DNA of 62,817 nt, filler included, from Collodictyon triciliatum (lineage: Eukaryota), in NCBI GenBank assembly GCA_043381765.1. It is 9 parts of 9 records of this genome, joined end to end, with 100 filler letters (N's around TTAATTAATTAA, not from the genome) between each part and the next. Parts side by side here need not be neighbours in the genome. Positions count along the whole stretch, not along the records: positions 38,495 to 46,083 come from JBHJMP010003829.1; 8 more parts are not named here. One strand, written 5' to 3'. Position 1 is the stretch's first letter, and each line of letters opens with the position of its first letter. Shown piece after piece: positions 4,013 to 53,883 of the stretch. The notes under the pieces were generated by a model. The model searched no databases, was not told the origin of the DNA, and saw only the letters and a list, made by a program, of their open reading frames with translations. The translations under genes were made by a program, and so were the position numbers.

Positions 4013-4988
4013 ACTCACCATGTCTTCTGCGTTTGCTTTCATTCACTCACCTTTCGTATTGCCTCGTTCTGTTTGCTCTTGCAGTTCTTTTTTTATTTTA
4101 TTTTCCTTTACCACTCTTTTCCCTTTTTTTTCTCCTGCAGAGTGAAAAAGAAGTAGCAAAACGTATCGAACATCGTTTCTGTCTCTTGCATTGCACCTGC
4201 ATTACCACTCATTACTATTATCGAAAGTCTTCCTCAGTTTCCTTTCTCTCTTCCTTTCTTTGCTTCCCACCTATTCTTATGATTGTTTGTTTGTTTGTTT
4301 GTGTGGGAACACTTATCTTTCTTTCCTTCTATCCTTACCTCCTTACCTTTGCTACAAAAAATCAACCTTTCAACACACATATCTTCTGCCATGATTTGCC
4401 TCACTGTACTCATAGAAGAAGGATCCAAAAACANNNNNNNNNNNNNNNNNNNNNNNNNNNNNNNNNNNNNNNNNNNNNNNNNNNNNNNNNNNNNNNNNNN
4501 NNNNNNNNNNNNNNNNNNNNNNNNNNNNNNNNNNNNNNNNNNNNNNNNNNNNNNNNNNNNNNNNNNNNNNNNNNNNNNNNNNNNNNNNNNNNNNNNNNNN
4601 NNNNNNNNNNNNNNNNNNNNNNNNNNNNNNNNNNNNNNNNNNNNNNNNNNNNNNNNNNNNNNNNNNNNNNNNNNNNNNNNNNNNNNNNNNNNNNNNNNNN
4701 NNNNNNNNNNNNNNNNNNNNNNNNNNNNNNNNNNNNNNNNNNNNNNNNNNNNNNNNNNNNNNNNNNNNNNNNNNNNNNNNNNNNNNNNNNNNNNNNNNNN
4801 NNNNNNNNNNNNNNNNNNNNNNNNNNNNNNNNNNNNNNNNNNNNNNNNNNNNNNNNNNNNNNNNNNNNNNNNNNNNNNNNNNNNNNNNNNNNNNNNNNNN
4901 NNNNNNNNNNNNNNNNNNNNNNNNNNNNNNACAAAAAACAAAGCAAAACAAAACAAACAACAGAAGAGTCCTCCGCACACCCCAAAAC

Positions 4989-7601: not shown

Positions 7602-7701
7602 NNNNNNNNNNNNNNNNNNNNNNNNNNNNNNNNNNNNNNNNNNNNTTAATTAATTAANNNNNNNNNNNNNNNNNNNNNNNNNNNNNNNNNNNNNNNNNNN
7701 N
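7602..7701. other. Artificial contig linker 44N-TTAATTAATTAA-44N
   Basis: Six-frame stop spacer inside N runs; the identical structure recurs about every 7.7 kb. Confidence 0.97.
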
Positions 7702-31831: not shown

Positions 31832-33740
31832 ATGTCCGACTATCTCACACCTGCCCAAGTGAATGCACTTTTGGAAGAAGTCCGGAAACTGTCTTACTCT
31901 CCAATTGCTGATATTGCCACTTTAAAACGATCCACAGAACTGAATCTCTGGAACAAGAATCTGTCATCTGTGCCGCCTGGTGTTTTTTTGTTGACTGGTC
32001 TGAAAGATTTGCGTCTTAATAACAATCTGCTGTCATCACTACCTGCACAGATATCGTGTTTGACTGGTCTTATAAAACTTTATGTTAATGGCAATCAGTT
32101 GTCATCACTACCTGCACAAATATCGTGTTTGACTGGTCTCAGTGTTCTTAATGTTAGTTACAATAAGCTATCATCACTACCTGCACAAATCTCGTGTTTG
32201 ACTGGTCTCACATTACTTTCTGTTCGTGATAATCCAGTATGATTTTATTCATATATTATATTATTATTTATGTTGAAAAGAAAAAATGACTGACAACGAT
32301 CCACACAGATGGAGGAGCTTCCAACACAGATCACAGCACTCACAAATCTGAAAGAACTCTGGATAAACGCTGGAGGGACACAAACCATAAAGAGAGCCCC
32401 TCGTGGCATCTCAAATCTCCCCTGCTGGAACAACACAGCATACAAAGACTACCAACACATCCGCGCTCTGCAGCTCTACGACCCCGTAAGCACACATCCA
32501 CCCCCAACCCCCACATACACAACACAGGACACAACTAACATAACTCTAGGTCGACGCCACCGCAGAAGCCATAAAAGCTTACAGACTTACCTGACACAAA
32601 CCTCCACTTACACAGGTTGCAGCCAGTCCCAACATCCAGTCGGGCATCTACGCAGCCCCAACCGGCCGCCTAGCCCGCGGCAACTACGCAGATCTCCTGA
32701 CAATGGACTTTGAGAAACGGGAGAACTTCCTGGGCAAGGGCGGCTTCGGGCTGGTCTTCAAGGTGCAGCTGAAGGCAGGCCTCTTCGCCGTGAAGCTTGT
32801 TGCGAACGCACAGATGCACGCCCTTGCCGACGGATCCGACCCGGAGAAGGAGGGCAACATGATGCTCGAGCTGCAGCACCCAAACATCCTGACGCTCTAC
32901 GACTTTGGCTTCCGCGGCAGAGACCTCCTCCTCGTGATGGAGTTTGCGGACGGCGGAGAGCTCTGCTCACTGGTCAAGAAGCAAGGGGCACTCAGCCTCG
33001 ACCTGACCCTCAAGTACGGGCTGCACATCATCCAGGGCCTCGTCTACCTGCACACGCGGCCAAGGCCCATCCAGCACCGCGACCTCAAGACCGAGAACGT
33101 CCTGCTTGTGAACGGCGTCGCCAAGCTGACGGACTTCGGCCTTGCAAAGAGCGGCGTCTCGGTCAACTCGGTCAGCAAGTTCGGCGGCTCCAAGAACTGG
33201 TCTCCGCCCGAGGCCTTCGACATCGGCAAGAGCATGGGGCTGCCCAGCGACGTCTACTCGTACGGCGTGGTGCTCTGGTCCATGGCGAGCGGTGAGTATC
33301 CGTACGAGGGTATGACGGACGGCCAGGTTGGCGCCTGTGTGACCAACGGTAAAACTCTCTCCATCCCCACAACCTGTCCTCCTAACCTCGCAGATCTGAT
33401 CCGCAAGTGCTGGGAGAGAAACTATGAGACTCGCATCAATACCCAGCAGGTCGAGGCCGAGCTCAAGGGCATCATGTCGAACCCCGCTGCTGTCCCGGCC
33501 ACTCCGAGGATGGGCTCCGTCAGCACCCCCATCGAAGACATGAACAACGCCATGCTCCTGGCCTACCTGGCTAGTAAGAATGCCAGTGAAGGTGTAATTG
33601 AGGCCTTTAGAAAGGTCAGAACTACTGGTGCAGAGATTGTTCTCATGGAGAAGGAAGACCTCTTGGCCAAACCGTTTGAGCTCCCACCTTTCCAGGCGCG
33701 CTTCGTTTTGAAACTCATCGAGGAGGCCAAGCGCACCTAA
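31832..33740 (+). CDS. LRR + TKL-like protein kinase + C-terminal SAM-like domain; exons 31832-32236, 32309-32485, 32616-33740 (568 aa)
   Basis: 23-aa LRRs (LTGLxxLxVxxNxLSSLPAQISC); kinase motifs GKGGFG, AVK, HRDLKTEN, DFG, WSPPE, SDVYSYG; helical SAM-like tail. Two phase-0 GT-AG introns join all parts in frame. No signal peptide or TM seen. Confidence 0.9.
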
Positions 33741-38394: not shown

Positions 38395-38494
38395 NNNNNN
38401 NNNNNNNNNNNNNNNNNNNNNNNNNNNNNNNNNNNNNNTTAATTAATTAANNNNNNNNNNNNNNNNNNNNNNNNNNNNNNNNNNNNNNNNNNNN
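38395..38494. other. Artificial contig linker
   Basis: 44N-TTAATTAATTAA-44N. Confidence 0.97.
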
Positions 38495-41400
38495 CCAAGC
38501 AAAGTGGACTGGAGCCGATTCCTGTCGCCAAGTTGACCGAGGGCGAAATTAAGGATGGTGTCGAATCCTTCCTCATTCGCTATGACAAGACCCTGAACGA
38601 AAAGCAAGCTGGAATGATTCTGGCTGACTTTGAAGATACTGGTGAGGCATTTTTAATAAGAGTATATATTTTGATAAAAATCTTATAAGAAATGATTTAG
38701 TTATTCTGATTTTTTTTATAGGCCATCCGCTCTATCTCCGCATCATTCTGGATGAAGTCAGGGTATTTGGTGTCTATGAGAAGCTTGATGAAATACTGAA
38801 AACTCTGCTTTCGACCAACGGTGTCATTGAGCTTTACACTCTCATTATCAAGCGCTGGCAACTGAAGTTTGACAGGAAAGGTGAGTATTGATTTGATATT
38901 TCAACAATAATGTAAAGAATCATAATTGCAATTTTTGTTGAATGATTCTATTTATCTACAGTGGCCTCAACTGATGGGAAAGAGACAATAAAGGTCGAGT
39001 ATGTCTCCCTCTCGATGAAGGTTCTCTTTGTCTCCCGCATCGGCCTGAGTGAAGGTGACTTGGATAATTACATGAAAGATGCGATTGGGACAGGATTCGA
39101 GCTTGCTGAATGGTTTGATTACTCTTAATAATAATAGAATTAATAGGTTTATCCTTTCTCATTTTTCTTTTTTATTTAACTTATCTTTCATTCATTCAAA
39201 CAGGAAATCCTTCTTCTTTACCCTCATCGAGTCGCTCTTCGTCCGCAATGGAAGGTTAGTGTTATTTTTCAATCGTTTTATTCGTTAATCGGTGTTTTCG
39301 GTATAATTTGATTTTGATATAAAGTCTTAATTATTGTCTATAATAGATACATGTACTTCCACCAGCTGCTGTTGGAGACCACCGAAAAAGTCTACTTCTC
39401 AGAAAAGAAAGAGATAGAAAAAACGCGCGAAAAATACGGAAGATGGCTGTTTGGCCAGTATTCTGAGTCTGCCGACGCAGATGAGGAGCTTGCTGCTGAA
39501 ATATGCTACCAGCTTCTGAAGGGCAGTTCGTTTGACTTGCTTGTGGAATACATGAAGCAAAAACATGTAATTTCTTTATAATTATTTCTTAATCGAGTAT
39601 TCTATACATAATGAAATGGTTTTCACTGATTAATTTAAATATTTCATAGGTTATCAGTATCATGCTCGGTGGTCGCTATCGCTACGAATTCTTTACATGC
39701 TGGAGAGCAATCAACGCAAGCGGAGCGGCAAACTACAAGGATGCTTATGGAAGCTTGGCTAAGGTAACTTTATTATTTAGTTTTATCTTTTTTGAAGGTG
39801 ACTACTTACACAATTTTAATATCAATCATGATTTATCTATTAATTATTATCGTTTTTTAGTCTTTGGATAAAGTGGGAGACCTGCTGGTTGGATTTTTCT
39901 TGGAGTCTTTTGAGAACTCGTTCTTGTTGTCTGTTCTGAATGTGCGTCTTGGAAAGCATCAGACGGAAGGTATGCAATTTATTATATTTTTGAAGAATTT
40001 ATGTCATGAATATGAGTTATATATGGATACGTTCAATAATTTATCAATTTACAGATGCGAAGGCTGCTGATTACCTGAATCTTGGTCGTGTCTACAAGAA
40101 CCTCCAAAAGTAAAAAAATAAAAAAAAAGCAATTATTATAAATAGGACATGAAATGGTGTTTATAATGCTAACTTTCTAAAATAAAATAAAAATAAACAG
40201 CTGGGCTGAGTCCATGGTCTACTACAAGAAATGCCTCGATTCAGCTGGGAAAAATGCAGATAATTTCCTGCGTATCGCCACCATTCATGAAGAGATGGGA
40301 ATCATCTACCAGCAACAGGATAAGTAAGGCTCGCTTTCAACTGTAAAATATTATGAATAATTTTTCAAAAAAGGAATTATTCTGATTTTCTTATGAAATA
40401 GAATTGATGAAGCTCTTGATGAATATAAGAAATCATTGGACTTGAGAGTCAAACAACTGGGCGAGAACGACTTGCAAGTGGCCCAATCACATGACCGCTT
40501 CGGAGACATCTACGCGAAGCAGTCAAAGTAATATTTGATCATTTATATTCGTTAATATTCTACTCTTTTCTGTAAATTTATTAATATTGATCAATTTTTT
40601 ATGATAGGAATGAGCAAGCTCTGGTTGAATACAAAAAGGCCATGGAAATTCGCCAGAAGAGAGTCGGAAACGAGCATCCTCTTGTCGCAACATCGTACCA
40701 GAACTATGGCCATGTCTCCCTGGCTGGGAAAAAGTAGCACATATTCATTCATTAAAGGCAGTTTTAAATACAGCTATGATAATTTTGAGAAAGATTAATA
40801 TGATTGAATCACCAAGGTATGAAGAGTCTATTGAAAACTTCGAGAAGGCGAAATCTATCCTTGAAAAATCGCTGGGAGCTAAGCATGCATCTGTTGCCTC
40901 GACAATCCAGTTTATTGCAAGCGTTCATCTTGCCAGTGGAAAGTTTGGATTTCTAAACTACAGATAATTTCATAAAACAATAATAATTTTCTATATCTTT
41001 CAATTTTAGCAAAAAGAATTTGGCATCATATCTTTCATTTGTATGGACTCTATTTGGGGTTAAAATATTATTATTTTAACTAATAAATATCAAATAACTA
41101 TCTTATATAGGAAAACTGAGGCCTTATCCTCATTAAAGCAATCGCTGGATATTTTTATGTCTACCCTGGGAGAAAATCATCCGAATGTTGTGGCTTGCTA
41201 TGAAATGATTGGAGACATCAGCCATGATTTGAAGGAGTATCTCTTTTTATTAATTATTATTACATATTTAATTGAAAAGAATAATTTATTTACCCTTATT
41301 CTCCTAGCTTTAAGGGTGCTTTGGAGGCCTATGCAAAGACGCTGGATATTCGCATGAGAACATTGGGCGAAAAGCATGCTGATTATGCTACTTCCCTGGA

Positions 41401-44400
41401 GAATGTTGGCAGAACAAACTTTGAGCTTCAAAGGTAAATTTCTCTGTTATATTAAAAATCGAATATTATGATTAGCAATCGCAAAATATACAAAAATATT
41501 CACTCATGTACATGATTCTAGTTCTGCTCAATGTGTTGATTGCTTCCAGAAGGCAGCTGCTATCAGAAAGGAGACAAATACAATCATGTCACTGAAAGAT
41601 GGCTCACAAATTGACAACATTATTCACTTCATGAAGGACAAGAAGGAGCATGAAACCGTCATTCAGCTTTACAAAACAGCTGCTGTTAGACATGGTGAAA
41701 AGTCCTCCTATGAAAACTGGGACTGCTGGGTGGCTTGTGAAAATTCGCACCAATACTGCAAAGAGAATAAGCTACATGAAAGTGGCGTGGCGTTCTGGGC
41801 TGAGATGAGAGACAGATTTGCTGATAAACTCGGATGGATTCATGAGAGAACAAGACTGGCAAATGTTTTTCTGTTGGATGTTAGCAAATATGTGGAGGAT
41901 TTCAACATCGATATGAAGGGCTTTAGCGTTTTGGATGTTGATAATGCTACTGTCCTTGAGAATGTTGGCCTAACAAACTTTGAGCTTAGAAGGTTAATCT
42001 CTCTATTATATTAGAAAAATCGAATATTTTTATTAATAGTTAAAAAATTTTTACACAAATATAACTAATGTGTACGCATTTAGATTGGACCAAGTCGTTG
42101 AATACTTCCAGAAGGCAGCTGCTATCAGAAAGGAGACACACACAATCATGTCACTGAAAGACACCCATCAGATTGAAAAGATTATCCACTTTATGAAAGA
42201 CAAGAAGGAGCATGAAGCTGTTATTCTGCTTTACAAAACGCTGATTCATTTATTCAACAAGCTTTATTCCATGCACTATTTTGGAATATGGAACAGCTGT
42301 GAGGAAATCAGTAAATTTTACAAGGAACTGAAGCAGCATAATGAAGCAGTGACATTTTGGACTGAGATGAGAGACATATTCGCTGATAAACTGGGATGGA
42401 TTCACCCCAGAACATTAAATTCTTGCGAATACTTGTCCGTTCATTCAAAAGAAACTGGAATCAACAAAGAGCATGTCGAGTTTACAAGAGTCAAGGAATT
42501 CATCAGTGAAACTCTTGATGATGCAAAACTAGATGAGGAATGGAATCGTGAGCAAATCATCGCATCATTATTCAGAATTGTCTACATGTCAAAGACTGAT
42601 GAAAGCAAATCAAAGGCTGCATCTGATGCAATCACACTTTTGAATTTCATGAATGTTTCTTTCGGTGGAATGGATTTATCAAACACCAAAATTCCGCATG
42701 CAAATCTCAGTAATTCAATCCTTGATGGTGCAAACCTCACTGGTGCCAACTTGGATGGTGTTGATTTCACGAATTCGATGCTTGGTGATTGTGTTTTTGA
42801 TGGCGCAAATATGAATAATGTGAAATTCGGAATTCCCTGTGATATATTAGATGGTCATACAAGTGCTGTCAATAGTGTTTGCAGTATTCAAGGACCGAAT
42901 GGTGAAAATTGGTTGGCTTCTGGGAGTTATGATGAAACAATACGTATTTGGGATGTAGCCACAGGAAACCAAATCAAAATGTTAAAAGGTCATACAGATG
43001 GTGTCTTGAGTGTTTGTAGTATTCAAGGACCGAATGGTGAAAATTGGTTGGCTTCTGGAAGTAAAGATAACACAATACGTATTTGGGATGTAGCCACAGG
43101 AAACCAAATCAAAACACTAAAAGAGCATACAGACTATGTCAACAGTGTTTGCAGTATTCAAGGACCGAATGGTGAAAATTGGTTGGCTTCTGGAAGTAAA
43201 GATAACACAATACGCATTTGGGATGTAGCCACAGGAAACCAAATCAAATTATTAGAAGGTCATATGCGGAGTGTCAACACCGTCTGTGCTATTCCAGGAC
43301 CAAATGGCGAAAAATGGCTGGTTTCAGGAAGTGATGATAAGACAATACGTATTTGGGATGTAGCCACAGGAAACCAAATCAAAACATTAGAAGGATATAC
43401 AGAATCTGTCAATAGTGTTTGCAGTATTCAAGGACCGAATGGTGAAAAGTGGCTGGCTTCTGGGAGTTATGATAAAACAATATGCATTTGGGATGTAGCC
43501 ACAGGAAACCAAATCATTACATTAGAAGGGCACACAGAACGTGTTACTAGCGTTTGCAGTATTCAAGGACCGAATGGTGAAAAGTGGTTGGCTTCTGGAA
43601 GTAATGACAGAACAATAGGTATTTGGGATGTAGCCACAGGAAACCAAATCAAAATAATAGAAAGTTATTGGGGTGCTGTCAATAGTGTTTGCAGTATTCA
43701 AGGACCGAATGGTGAAAATTGGTTGGCTTCTGGAGGTAATGATAATAGTCTATGTAGAATTCAAGGACCGACTGGTGAAGATTGGTTGGCTTCTGGAAGT
43801 CTTGATACAATACGTATTTGGGATGTAGCCTCAGGAAACCGAACACACAGTCTGCAAAAATCAGAAATGACTTACACACTAGGAAAATACCTTGTCAGGA
43901 AAGAAAAGCCAGACGAAGTCATCGCAGTGTTCAACAGAACAAGCGATGCGATGAACATGATTGACACCAACAGAATCCAAGATGCAAGGATAGTCCAGAT
44001 TATCGGCCCAAGAAAGCTGCAAGGTGGAAACATCCAAATCAGAAATGTCGCAGGATTGAGTCAATTCAATAAATCCCTCCTACTTTCTATCGGTGCTTTT
44101 TCTTTTGATGCGGACTTTGCTGCCTATTGTGAGCAGGGCAAGTTCACCAAGTTCCAGGCTCAAATGATGGCCGAGTGCTATGAGAACGGATGGGGTGTGG
44201 AGAAGGACACCGATAAAGCTTATTTTTGGAGATATGTTGCCTTTCCAAAGTTATCATTAGATTTTGATGGATTGAAACATGTAGCACAACAAGGCTCAAA
44301 GGATGCATTCAATATTTTGAAGGAAATGGGTGAAATGAAGAAAGATATCAAAAACGATCGGGGAAGAAAAATTGGTGAAAAACACAAATATCCACAAGCT

Positions 44401-45666
44401 GTTTCTATTGTTGCTGGATGCTATGAGAATGGGTGGGGTGTTGAGAAGGACACCGAGAAAGCAGCTGAATGGTTCGGAAAAGTTGAAAACTTTGAGAAAC
44501 TGAAGCAACTTGCGCAACAAGGCTCAAAGGGTGCATTCAGTATTTTGAAGGAAATGGGTGAAATGAAGAAAGATATCAAAAATGATCGGGGAAGAAAAAT
44601 TGGTGAAAAACACAAATATCCACAAGCTGTTTCTATTGTTGCTGAATGCTATGAGAATGGGTGGGGTGTTGAGAAGGACATCGAGAAAGCAGCCGAGTGG
44701 AATCTATTGGCTCTAAAAGCAGATGAAAACTTTGATAAACTGAAGCAACTTGCCCAACAAGGCTCAAAAGGTGCATTCTATGTTTTGAAAGAAATGGCTG
44801 AAATGAAGGAAGACATTTCGAACCGATGGGGAGACAAAATTGGTGAAAAACACATATATTCACATGCTGTTTCTATCGTTGCCGAATGCTATGAGAATGG
44901 GTGGGGTGTTGAGAAGGACTCTTCGTTGTCTCTTAAATGGGAAATATTCAATGAAAAGGCTGAAAACTTTGACAAGCTGAAGCAACTCGCACAACAAGGC
45001 TCAAAGGATGCATTCTATGTTTTGAAAGAATTTGCTGAAATCAAGGAAGATATCCTGGACCCGATGGGAGTCAAAAGTGGTAAAAAACACAAATATCCAC
45101 AAGCTGTTTATATTGTTGCTGAGTGCTATGAGAATGGGTGGGGTGTTGAGAAGGACATCGAGAAATCAGCTGAGTGGCTCGGAAAAGCTGAAAACTTCGA
45201 TAAACTGAAGCAATTTGCGCAACAAGGCTCAAAAGAAGCATTTAATGTTTTGAAAGAAATGGCCGAAATGAAACAATATGAGAGATACAAATATCCACAA
45301 GCTTTTTCTATTGTTGCTGAGTGCTATGAGAATGGGTGGGGTGTTGAGAAGGACATCGAGAAAGCTTATTATTGGTTCGGAAAAGCTGAAAGCTTTGACA
45401 AATTGAAGCAACTCGCACAGCAAGGCTCAAAAGAAGCATTCAATGTTTTGGAAGAATTTGCTGAAAACAAGGATGAATTTAGAAGATACAAATATCCACA
45501 AGCTTTTTCTATTGTGGCTGAGTGCTATGAGAATGAGTGGGGTGTTGAGAAGGGCACCAAGAAAGCAGCTGAGTGGTTCGGAAAAGCTGAAAACTTTGTG
45601 ATAGGAGATGATGAAGATGATGAAGATGATGAAGATGATGAAAGGAGACAGAAAGCCGCAGCTTAA
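38495..45666 (+). CDS. NLR-like multidomain protein, 5' truncated: NPHP3/TEP1-type STAND-associated helical region, TPR array, pentapeptide repeats, about 7 WD40 repeats, 7 Sel1-like repeats
   Basis: First exons give FLIRYDKTLNEKQ..GHPLYLRIILDEVRVFGVYEKLDE..LYTLIIKRW..VSRIGLSE. TPR exons span 40201-41433. Last exon 42084-45666 has AASDAITLLN..FGGMDLS..ANL pentapeptides, 45-aa WD40 units and AECYENGWGVEKD units. Confidence 0.85.
42847..43845 (+). repeat. Near-identical 135-bp WD40 coding tandem repeats (6 full + 1 with an internal partial duplication)
   Basis: GGATGTAGCCACAGGAAACCAAATC recurs every 135 nt (e.g. 42951, 43086). Confidence 0.92.
44160..45600 (+). repeat. Seven Sel1-like coding repeats of roughly 200-240 bp
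   Basis: TGCTATGAGAA(T/C)G..TGGGGTGT(T/G)GAGAAGG occurs seven times. Confidence 0.9.
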
Positions 45667-45840
45667 CAAGGTAAGTAGTATAATAAATGCATATTAATAC
45701 ATGTTCATTAACTATAATCATTTTAGATGGAGAGATTCTCTGGGTTTTTTTCAAGCAGACCTCCGCTTTTTTTCCAAAAGGACGCTCCATGAAAGCAGAA
45801 TAAAACCATAAAAATGAAAGCAAAGCTGATCAATCTCTCG

Positions 45841-45927
45841 TTTCCTATTGGTTTTGCACAAAAACCACGTTTCCCTTTGGTTTTGCACAAAAACCACGTT
45901 TCCCTTTGGTTTTGCACAAAAACCACG
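45841..45927. repeat. 3 x 29-bp tandem repeat with an internal imperfect palindrome
   Basis: TTTCC(C/T)(T/A)TTGGTTTTGCACAAAAACCACG at 45841, 45870 and 45899. Confidence 0.9.
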
Positions 45928-46083
45928 CGGATGGCAACCAAGCCGAGCTCAGGTGCGGTGAGCGCGAGCGAAACGCACAAGAGCGAGGTGCCTCAACTTG
46001 ACGACGAGAATGTGGTCTACGAGCACTACCGGACGCGACCGGTGGAGCGAGCAGCGGGGCTGCAGGAGAAGGGACTCTACCCG

Positions 46084-46183
46084 NNNNNNNNNNNNNNNNN
46101 NNNNNNNNNNNNNNNNNNNNNNNNNNNTTAATTAATTAANNNNNNNNNNNNNNNNNNNNNNNNNNNNNNNNNNNNNNNNNNNN
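46084..46183. other. Artificial contig linker
   Basis: 44N-TTAATTAATTAA-44N. Confidence 0.97.
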
Positions 46184-53783: not shown

Positions 53784-53883
53784 NNNNNNNNNNNNNNNNN
53801 NNNNNNNNNNNNNNNNNNNNNNNNNNNTTAATTAATTAANNNNNNNNNNNNNNNNNNNNNNNNNNNNNNNNNNNNNNNNNNNN
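53784..53883. other. Artificial contig linker
   Basis: 44N-TTAATTAATTAA-44N. Confidence 0.97.

Follow-up and report, generated by a model that had tools for sequence, protein, structure and literature searches.

Part of a predicted NPHP3/TEP1/NWD-type STAND protein with four repeat folds in series in Collodictyon triciliatum

It was not until 2026 that the DUF4062/TeTIR-NACHT family, to which the human proteins TEP1, NWD1, NWD2, NPHP3 and TTC41P belong, was recognised as a family of TIR-like NADase/STAND proteins. According to two preprints, DUF4062/TeTIR works as a TIR-like NADase, both in TEP1 and in proteins of bacterial defence; the domain stands where APAF-1 has its CARD, and its proposed trigger is oligomerisation of NACHT once a signal has been sensed by the repeats (10.64898/2026.05.01.722283; 10.64898/2026.09.21.753143). 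In one of the two, family members are described with "either WD40 or TPR" repeats. Here we describe a gene of Collodictyon triciliatum (GenBank assembly GCA_043381765.1) found in a window of 62,817 nucleotides, by which we mean the whole stretch of DNA analysed. The gene lies on one contig piece of this window (38495-46083) and probably encodes the C-terminal part of a protein of this family, but with TPR and WD40 repeats in series, plus a pentapeptide block and Sel1 repeats. As "either WD40 or TPR" is a descriptive trait and not a defining one, the gene is classed as a variant of the family. The family itself is known, if recently defined; what is new is the architectural variant, with its lineage-specific expansion.

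The gene model is on the plus strand and has 16 exons, from 38497 to 45666. All 15 introns are of the GT...AG type and measure 71-168 bp (78-97 bp in 13 of the 15). The joined coding sequence of 5811 nt encodes 1936 aa and has no internal stop, the stop codon being at 45664-45666. Exon borders match the ends of tblastn blocks from the transcript-derived relatives P0001 and P0002, for example P0002 residues 129-166 on 39650-39763. None of the four minus-strand open reading frames (ORFs) tested within 38495-46083 contains a Pfam family. According to this model, the contig carries the 3' two-thirds of one real, intron-rich protein-coding gene, the single chain being a predicted join. Its 5' end is lost to the contig edge, not to a biological boundary: an artificial linker (38395-38494, no strand; N-run table and sequence) cuts the gene there.

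The N-terminal part of the model points to a STAND protein. Exons 1-5 (38497-38641, 38722-38880, 38962-39112, 39204-39254 and 39347-39566, plus strand; gene model, phmmer and alignment of the relatives) encode the end of the NACHT module, a helical domain with GHPLYL..VRVFGVYEKL and a winged-helix-like part with SRIGLSEGDL and YMYFHQLL; the GHPLYL...VFGVYEKL segment is in exon 2. In a phmmer comparison whose E-values refer to a set of 36 sequences, residues 1-300 scored 46.4 bits against a protein named nephrocystin-3 and 35.8 bits against one named TEP1 (telomerase protein component 1), and the model was also aligned with a protein named NWD1. The alignment to the NPHP3- and TEP1-named proteins spans the motifs GxPLYL..E(E/V)LRxFG, SRxGLxExxL and FH. 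The helical segment directly after the NTPase that carries the GxP motif, TGHPLYLRIILDEVRVFGVYEKL, aligns with TANPLYLQALLEELRLFGRHEEL (named NPHP3) and AGKPLYLTVACEELRVFGVYEKV (named TEP1). In the winged-helix part, SRIGLSEGDL aligns with SRRGLQESEL and SRGGLAENEV, and YMYFHQLL with FSHEYF and LFHEQLL. FHQLL is invariant in all seven family rows, and the conserved histidine of the winged-helix domain presumably has a role in STAND proteins. The C-terminal superstructure-forming repeats, a STAND trait, are all present as TPR_12, pentapeptide, WD40 and Sel1.

Seven close relatives (P0001, P0002, P0122, P0123, P0253, P0254 and P0255) are unannotated Trinity ORFs of Diphylleia rotans (EukProt EP00002). 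They are 34-54% identical to the gene, which falls within the range between the D. rotans paralogues themselves (P0001 and P0123, 65%; P0002 and P0123, 46%). With exon 5 as query, two of 146 candidates proved to be matches, both 52% identical to it, P0001 being one of them. In a tree of the N-terminal region, the gene groups with six D. rotans sequences apart from NPHP3/TEP1-like outgroups (support 100/100); the relations inside this clade are not settled. P0123 is full length (2619 aa, beginning with M) and contains, in order, a CH domain, DUF4062 (TIR-like), NACHT, winged helix, TPR, helical module, pentapeptide block, WD40, linker and one Sel1 repeat. Residues 3-710 of the model align with residues 800-1497 of P0123 at 50% identity; the model thus starts at about residue 800 of P0123, and some 800 N-terminal residues are absent from the window. 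P0001 has CH, DUF4062, nSTAND1 and NACHT domains directly before the segment aligned to the model: its NACHT is at residues 735-903, and its residues 880-1245 align with model residues 1-376 at 54% identity. The CH domain of the relatives matches the actin-binding domains of plectin and alpha-actinin.

The DUF4062 domain of P0001 (E = 5.8e-11) matches the TEP1 crystal chain 11gz_A (E = 3.4e-15). DUF4062 was matched in two halves across 31 segments, and motifs were therefore compared in pairwise alignments, in which RWG and SVTExE of the relatives align with proteins named TEP1, the catalytic Glu within SVTExE not being singled out. P0123 reads ..FIFLVDAVNQ.. as well as a Walker A-like ..AESGIGKSS... 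With its residues 400-1130 as query, 32 matches were obtained. Three of these are further paralogues; others, only 19-27% identical, bear the names nephrocystin-3, telomerase protein component 1, or NACHT and WD repeat domain-containing protein 1. The alignment of the N-terminal 300 residues with NPHP3- and TEP1-named proteins, together with DUF4062 and NACHT directly upstream in relatives of 43-54% identity, supports the reading of this gene as the C-terminal part of an NPHP3/TEP1/NWD-type STAND protein. An earlier note on this DNA had proposed the same assignment and had placed the Walker A/B core outside the contig; this agrees with a piece that begins at 38495, and tblastn with P0001 and P0002 found nothing elsewhere in the window.

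Some observations on the wider family were made in passing. In P0264, a fish relative of TEP1, the N-terminal and C-terminal halves of DUF4062 occur twice in tandem (four phmmer domains), which suggests either a duplicated TIR-like domain or an annotation artefact. Leads in the ESM Atlas were clusters with DUF4062 and NPHP3_N/NACHT, mostly bacterial. P0254 has a different tail (..GKTWWYTKDALVAVSEKPSWIN) after a Sel1 repeat that is still present, and its precomputed Pfam list has PF06701, which we take to be the MIB/HERC2 domain; the C-terminal end of the family thus varies between paralogues. The 77-aa fragment P0125, from an NCBI contig of 713 bp, has 72% identity to the exon-15 module and 60% to its exon-16 copy, so that at least one more paralogue exists in some NCBI assembly. 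A specific bacterial donor was considered and rejected: in BLASTP, the similarity of the bacterial NACHT and pentapeptide proteins P0074 and P0116 to the model and to P0123 is limited to the pentapeptide part. In the metagenome contigs of JGI, none of the 592 pattern matches for exon 2, nor of the 168 for exon 5 plus six relatives, was confirmed by tblastn, a weak negative because introns break the patterns.

Behind the winged-helix part, several repeat modules were found. The exons upstream of the TPRs have individually no Pfam match. Exons 6-8 (39650-39763, 39861-39969 and 40055-40109, plus strand; gene model and tblastn block ends) encode a conserved helical connector (GGRYRYEFFTCW...) that leads into the first TPR (39650-40109). 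The array of 42-residue TPR_12-type repeats is on exons 9-14 (40201-40323, 40402-40527, 40608-40733, 40817-40942, 41111-41236 and 41308-41433; together 40201-41433, plus strand), as judged from exon lengths, TPR_12 matches and a home-made hidden Markov model (HMM). Six TPR units were counted with this HMM; the HMMs used throughout the repeat census were built from the family's own repeat units. Scored exon by exon and not on the spliced array, TPR_12 reached E = 3.6e-6 (27.5 bits) and 1.1e-4 (22.7 bits), below the curated cut-off of 30.1 because each exon contains just one 42-aa unit. The homologous arrays of P0002 and P0123 score 136 bits. Exons 10-14 (40402-41433) are exactly 126 bp each, one TPR unit per exon, and their introns share the same phase, which suggests that the array grew by exon duplication.

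Exon 15 (41522-41992, plus strand; self-comparison) holds the first copy of a helical, TPR-like module that has no significant Pfam match. The second copy (42084-42660, plus strand; AlphaFold2 model and family matches) opens the large exon 16 (42084-45666, plus strand; gene model). The two stretches 41376-41842 and 41935-42404 are 73% identical over 482 nt, intron included; by this comparison, the exon 15 module and the beginning of exon 16 are tandem copies of long standing, too diverged for an assembly artefact. An exhaustive HMMER search with the module (42085-42660) gave 131 matches at E <= 1e-3, of which only four are family members (P0122, P0123, P0002 and P0125) and the remainder generic TPR-like proteins matched in multiple stretches. 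An AlphaFold2 model of residues 1-697 of exon 16, built on a six-row alignment (mean predicted local distance difference test, pLDDT, 80.6), has nine helices at residues 2-188. One-residue strands every five residues follow at positions 197-247 of the model, the periodicity of a pentapeptide beta-helix. The corresponding block of about 10-12 pentads (42661-42840, plus strand; PF00805 and AlphaFold2 model) matches PF00805 with E = 4.3e-15 and 55.4 bits (cut-off 20.2).

The WD40 propeller (42847-43857, plus strand; Pfam, repeat analysis, AlphaFold2 and fold matches) matches PF00400 with E = 2.2e-60 and 199 bits (cut-off 27). It is formed by six regular blades of 45 aa (135 bp) and an irregular last part, in which there is an internal duplication of 63 bp (43681-43807) and the last blade is one codon short. 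Seven confident four-stranded blades and a possible eighth, of low confidence, are seen in the model, and Foldseek matched it to 7- and 8-bladed propellers (TMt 0.79-0.81). A linker (43858-44133, plus strand; ..GGNIQIRNVAGLSQFNKSLLLSIGAFSFDADF..) connects propeller and Sel1 repeats; the 111-aa piece between the two has no Pfam family, yet it is conserved among the relatives (conserved columns; AlphaFold2 partly of low confidence). Seven Sel1-like super-repeats of 66-81 aa follow (44134-45603, plus strand; Pfam, tandem units and structure model). PF08238 was found in seven stretches (E = 2.1e-41, 139.3 bits, cut-off 30.7), and seven CYEN[GE]WGVEK cores are present. The tandem units are of 228 bp (4.2 copies) and 198 bp (2.6 copies), with 81-86% matches. 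A single-sequence AlphaFold2 model (mean pLDDT 77.9) gives a helical solenoid with about four helices per unit, the long units adding a beta-hairpin insert. Among the 13 top fold matches listed, from eight PDB entries, all are Sel1/SLR proteins or SEL1L (best E = 3.6e-11); their TM-scores are low (0.12-0.20), which is to be expected when solenoid curvatures differ and the model is a single-sequence one. The protein ends in an acidic tail (DDEDDEDDEDDE...) followed by the stop codon (45604-45666, plus strand; gene model), with a 9-bp repeat at 45606-45642.

This composite architecture is not restricted to C. triciliatum. TPR, one pentapeptide block, WD40 and Sel1 occur together in the gene and, within one ORF each, in P0002, P0122, P0123, P0253 and P0254, and in the set compared the composite was seen in these proteins only; P0255 has TPR only. 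From these ORFs, the composite sensor is conserved within a small protist clade and is not a misjoin of two genes. In 28 more distant DUF4062-NACHT proteins the home-made HMMs found nothing beyond WD40, the TPR zeros being unreliable because the narrow TPR profile missed the TPRs of an NPHP3-named protein. Bacterial STANDs with two repeat classes exist. The gene differs from its relatives in having seven Sel1 copies against one in each of them, the first being the counterpart of their single repeat, and two helical modules against one; it has one propeller, while relatives have up to two or more (11-29 WD40 matches). The earlier note had described the GHPLYL segment, the TPR array, the pentapeptide module, the WD40 propeller and the seven Sel1 repeats, and all were recovered by Pfam and the gene model at the positions it gave, with its start of the large exon at 42084 coinciding with a splice acceptor. 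It had counted three repeat classes: TPR, WD40 and Sel1 are indeed there, but the pentapeptide beta-helix brings the number to four. The stacking, which it had called unusual, does depart from the published family, but is shared by five D. rotans proteins and so not unique to this gene.

No paper pairing "NACHT" with "TPR-WD40" was found in the literature, although preprint supplements, which were outside the search, may list protist members. Likewise no paper on NACHT proteins of Diphylleia was found, and none of six phrases on mixed repeat types occurs in PMC12258605.

Variation among the blades is not evenly spread. The 135-bp WD40 units are present in 6.7 copies with 83% matches, and pairwise DNA identity between blades is 78-90%. 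In the six regular blades, three or more different residues occur at positions 2, 6, 7, 9, 28, 30, 33 and 45. The D-A and B-C loops of WD40 propellers form the top, ligand-binding face. Four of the eight variable positions are in the D-A loop and B-C turn, which comprise eight top-loop positions (P = 0.024), and none is among the ten bottom-loop positions, at which GPNGE and VATGN are invariant. At the other 37 of the 45 blade positions, the ratio of nonsynonymous to synonymous substitutions (dN/dS) is 0.16, indicating constraint.

Taken as a whole, the gene is probably best explained as part of a very large STAND ATPase of the NACHT clade and the DUF4062/TeTIR-NACHT family, with a repeat-gated NADase-effector mechanism. 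From the gene order, folds and homology described above we infer the missing N-terminus, the gating and the output as follows. The approximately 800 missing upstream residues should hold the CH domain, the TIR-like DUF4062 and the P-loop core, as in the full-length relatives. The C-terminal stack of repeats would keep the NACHT module closed, by analogy with APAF-1, NLRs and the proposals made for TEP1. A ligand on a repeat surface, most plausibly the variable top face of the propeller, would free the NACHT module, and freed modules would oligomerise. The N-terminal TIR-like domains would thereby be gathered and could hydrolyse NAD+, with a cell-death or alarm response as the outcome. A role in non-self sensing, which the earlier note had put forward, is plausible as a hypothesis. 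Sel1 expansion, duplication of the helical module and near-identical WD40 blades point to a sensor end that was recently remodelled in this lineage.

Several points weigh against this explanation. The P-loop core and any effector domain are outside the window and are expected only from relatives of about 50% identity, and in P0001 NACHT (27.4 bits, cut-off 26.7) and nSTAND1 (32.0 bits, cut-off 27.1) are barely over the Pfam thresholds. The strict pattern GxxxxGK[ST] has no match in P0123, where the sequence reads AESGIGKSS, the A-form of the motif. Full-length NWD1, NWD2 and NPHP3 showed no NADase activity according to one of the two preprints (10.64898/2026.05.01.722283; 10.64898/2026.09.21.753143). 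The named members TEP1, NWD1 and NPHP3 have no established pathogen-sensing role. Exon joins are predicted from genomic DNA plus the transcripts of relatives, and in the last blade region, which is irregular, the structure prediction is poor (pLDDT 32-58). The dN/dS of 1.43 found for the eight variable sites has no weight alone: it is circular and post hoc, because the sites were picked for their variability. Finally, synonymous divergence (dS) between blades is about 0.3, so that the repeats are not very recent.

A more specific interpretation, which we advance only tentatively, is that the gene belongs to a family of intracellular immune receptors that is diversifying in a deep-branching lineage of protists, its nearest kin being those of the collodictyonid D. 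rotans. It would be a TIR-like-NADase/NACHT analogue of the TNLs, with four repeat folds stacked in series as its sensor. A different ligand could then be read by each fold, and modules could expand or duplicate in each lineage (Sel1 from one to seven, the helical module from one to two, propellers from one to at least two).

The main rival is that the same protein is a housekeeping scaffold that organises a large assembly, like NPHP3 (cilium), TEP1 (vault) or NWD1, with repeats that are docking sites for fixed partners and a CH domain, in the relatives, that ties it to the cytoskeleton. The nearest named relatives are indeed nephrocystin-3, TEP1 and NWD1, the CH domain matches actin-binding domains (plectin, alpha-actinin), purifying selection acts on the blade scaffold (dN/dS 0.16), and the module order is kept at about 50% identity between two organisms or paralogues. 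However, at least seven paralogous D. rotans transcripts differ in repeat number (7 to 29 WD40 matches) and in their ends, the sensor end has expanded in a lineage-specific way (Sel1 from one to seven, module duplication), variation is concentrated in the top-face loops, and the NADase domain of the relatives retains SVTExE and RWG. Paralogue variety, sensor-end expansion, top-loop variation and kept motifs fit diversifying receptors better than fixed scaffolds, and we hold the scaffold to be unlikely, though not negligible.

For the repeat-gated ATPase to be one protein, the TPR part (38497-41433) and the large exon (42084-45666) have to belong together. That they are two separate in-frame genes in tandem could be argued from exon joins predicted on genomic sequence and from an in-frame Met 23 codons into exon 16 (IMSLKD). 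This is very improbable. Five transcript-derived ORFs of relatives are colinear, from TPR through helical module, pentapeptide and WD40 to Sel1, in one chain, in line with the earlier note, which had treated the parts as one gene. Homology to P0002 and P0123 is unbroken across the junctions of exons 14, 15 and 16, and no stop occurs within 5811 nt. Moreover, the duplicate 41376-41842 / 41935-42404 takes in the intron and the end of the preceding exon, so that the junction was apparently duplicated within a single gene. It is hardly credible, too, that the gene is a pseudogene, a decaying or partial paralogue left on a small contig. Such a reading could point to the contig, which is unplaced, just 7.6 kb long and truncates the gene, to a last WD40 blade with 63 bp duplicated internally and one codon missing, and to the 77-aa P0125 fragment of another paralogue on its 713-bp contig. 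But the frame is open across 16 exons, every splice site is intact, dN/dS away from the variable sites is 0.16, and all irregularities are in frame.

This protist branch shows that TPR and propeller sensors are combinable modules and not alternatives. Its natural variants (one against seven Sel1 repeats, one against at least two propellers) are suited to asking which module gates the ATPase. TNL-like logic, with a TIR-like effector, a STAND ATPase and a repeat sensor, would be extended to a lineage near the base of Amorphea, although the value is tempered by a window that holds the sensor end only. If the tentative immune-receptor interpretation is true, free-living unicellular predators would also have NLR-type immunity, with effectors that cleave NAD+ and sensors that shuffle repeats, and multi-fold sensors would be a third route to wider recognition, beside allelic repeat variation and integrated decoys.

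The rest of the window cannot be read as the genomic neighbourhood of the gene. Eight identical artificial linkers (44 N, TTAATTAATTAA, 44 N) split the 62.8-kb window into nine pieces, each of about 7.6 kb; in the N-run table they are at 7602-7701, 15305-15404, 23005-23104, 30703-30802, 38395-38494, 46084-46183, 53784-53883 and 61462-61561. Further N gaps are at 2279-2540, 4434-4930 and 28575-28970. The piece 38495-46083 has a linker on either side, so that the sequence beside it gives no genomic context. The other pieces contain no further match to P0001 or P0002, the tblastn blocks being confined to 38497-44232. Rfam had no matches in the whole window, and none of 20 listed sequencing runs contained more than 0.15 of the sampled words; the small shares found in metagenome runs from freshwater and the subsurface carry no information on habitat. 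On another piece, a 381-aa open frame (32595-33737, plus strand, local GC content 0.53) encodes a complete protein kinase domain (Pkinase, E = 2.7e-47) unrelated to the NACHT-family gene. On a further piece, a stop-free frame of 866 aa (16088-18685, plus strand) has no Pfam family at E <= 1e-3 and a strongly negative local GC skew. A 29-bp tandem repeat (45839-45927, 3.1 copies, 96% matches) is found about 170 bp 3' of the stop codon of the gene.

Compared with the DUF4062/TeTIR-NACHT family, the gene shares the homology of the helical and winged-helix regions after NACHT, and its relatives share the position of DUF4062 immediately before NACHT and the conserved motifs RWG and SVTExE. It combines the TPR_12 array of the NPHP3 type with the WD40 propeller of the TEP1/NWD type. 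Unlike TEP1, NWD and NPHP3, it has a pentapeptide beta-helix between TPR and WD40 and a Sel1 solenoid at the end, and the relatives carry an N-terminal CH domain instead of TROVE/VWA. The D. rotans relatives belong to the same family and have the same module order, differing in their single Sel1 repeat, single helical module and larger number of WD40 repeats.

Fungal NLRs offer a second comparison. The HET-E/D/R and NWD genes, as described by Dyrka et al. 2014 (PMC4986451), have NACHT with WD40 or TPR, as in the family of our gene, and repeats that are, like those of the gene, highly alike (78-90% DNA identity in our case), with variability focused on the predicted binding face. In contrast, that paper describes fungal NLRs with one repeat domain each and with other N-terminal effectors, HET and others (PMC4986451). 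The dS of about 0.3 between our blades is also higher than expected for actively homogenised arrays. With APAF-1 and the plant TNLs, the gene and its relatives share the tripartite order of effector, STAND ATPase and repeat sensor; both preprints liken TEP1 to APAF-1/TNL logic (10.64898/2026.05.01.722283; 10.64898/2026.09.21.753143). The TIR-like domain is N-terminal to the ATPase in the relatives, and the propeller could fold back on the ATPase. Unlike APAF-1 and the plant TNLs, however, the ATPase is of the NACHT type and not NB-ARC, CARD and LRR are absent, and the sensor is built from four modules and not from one.

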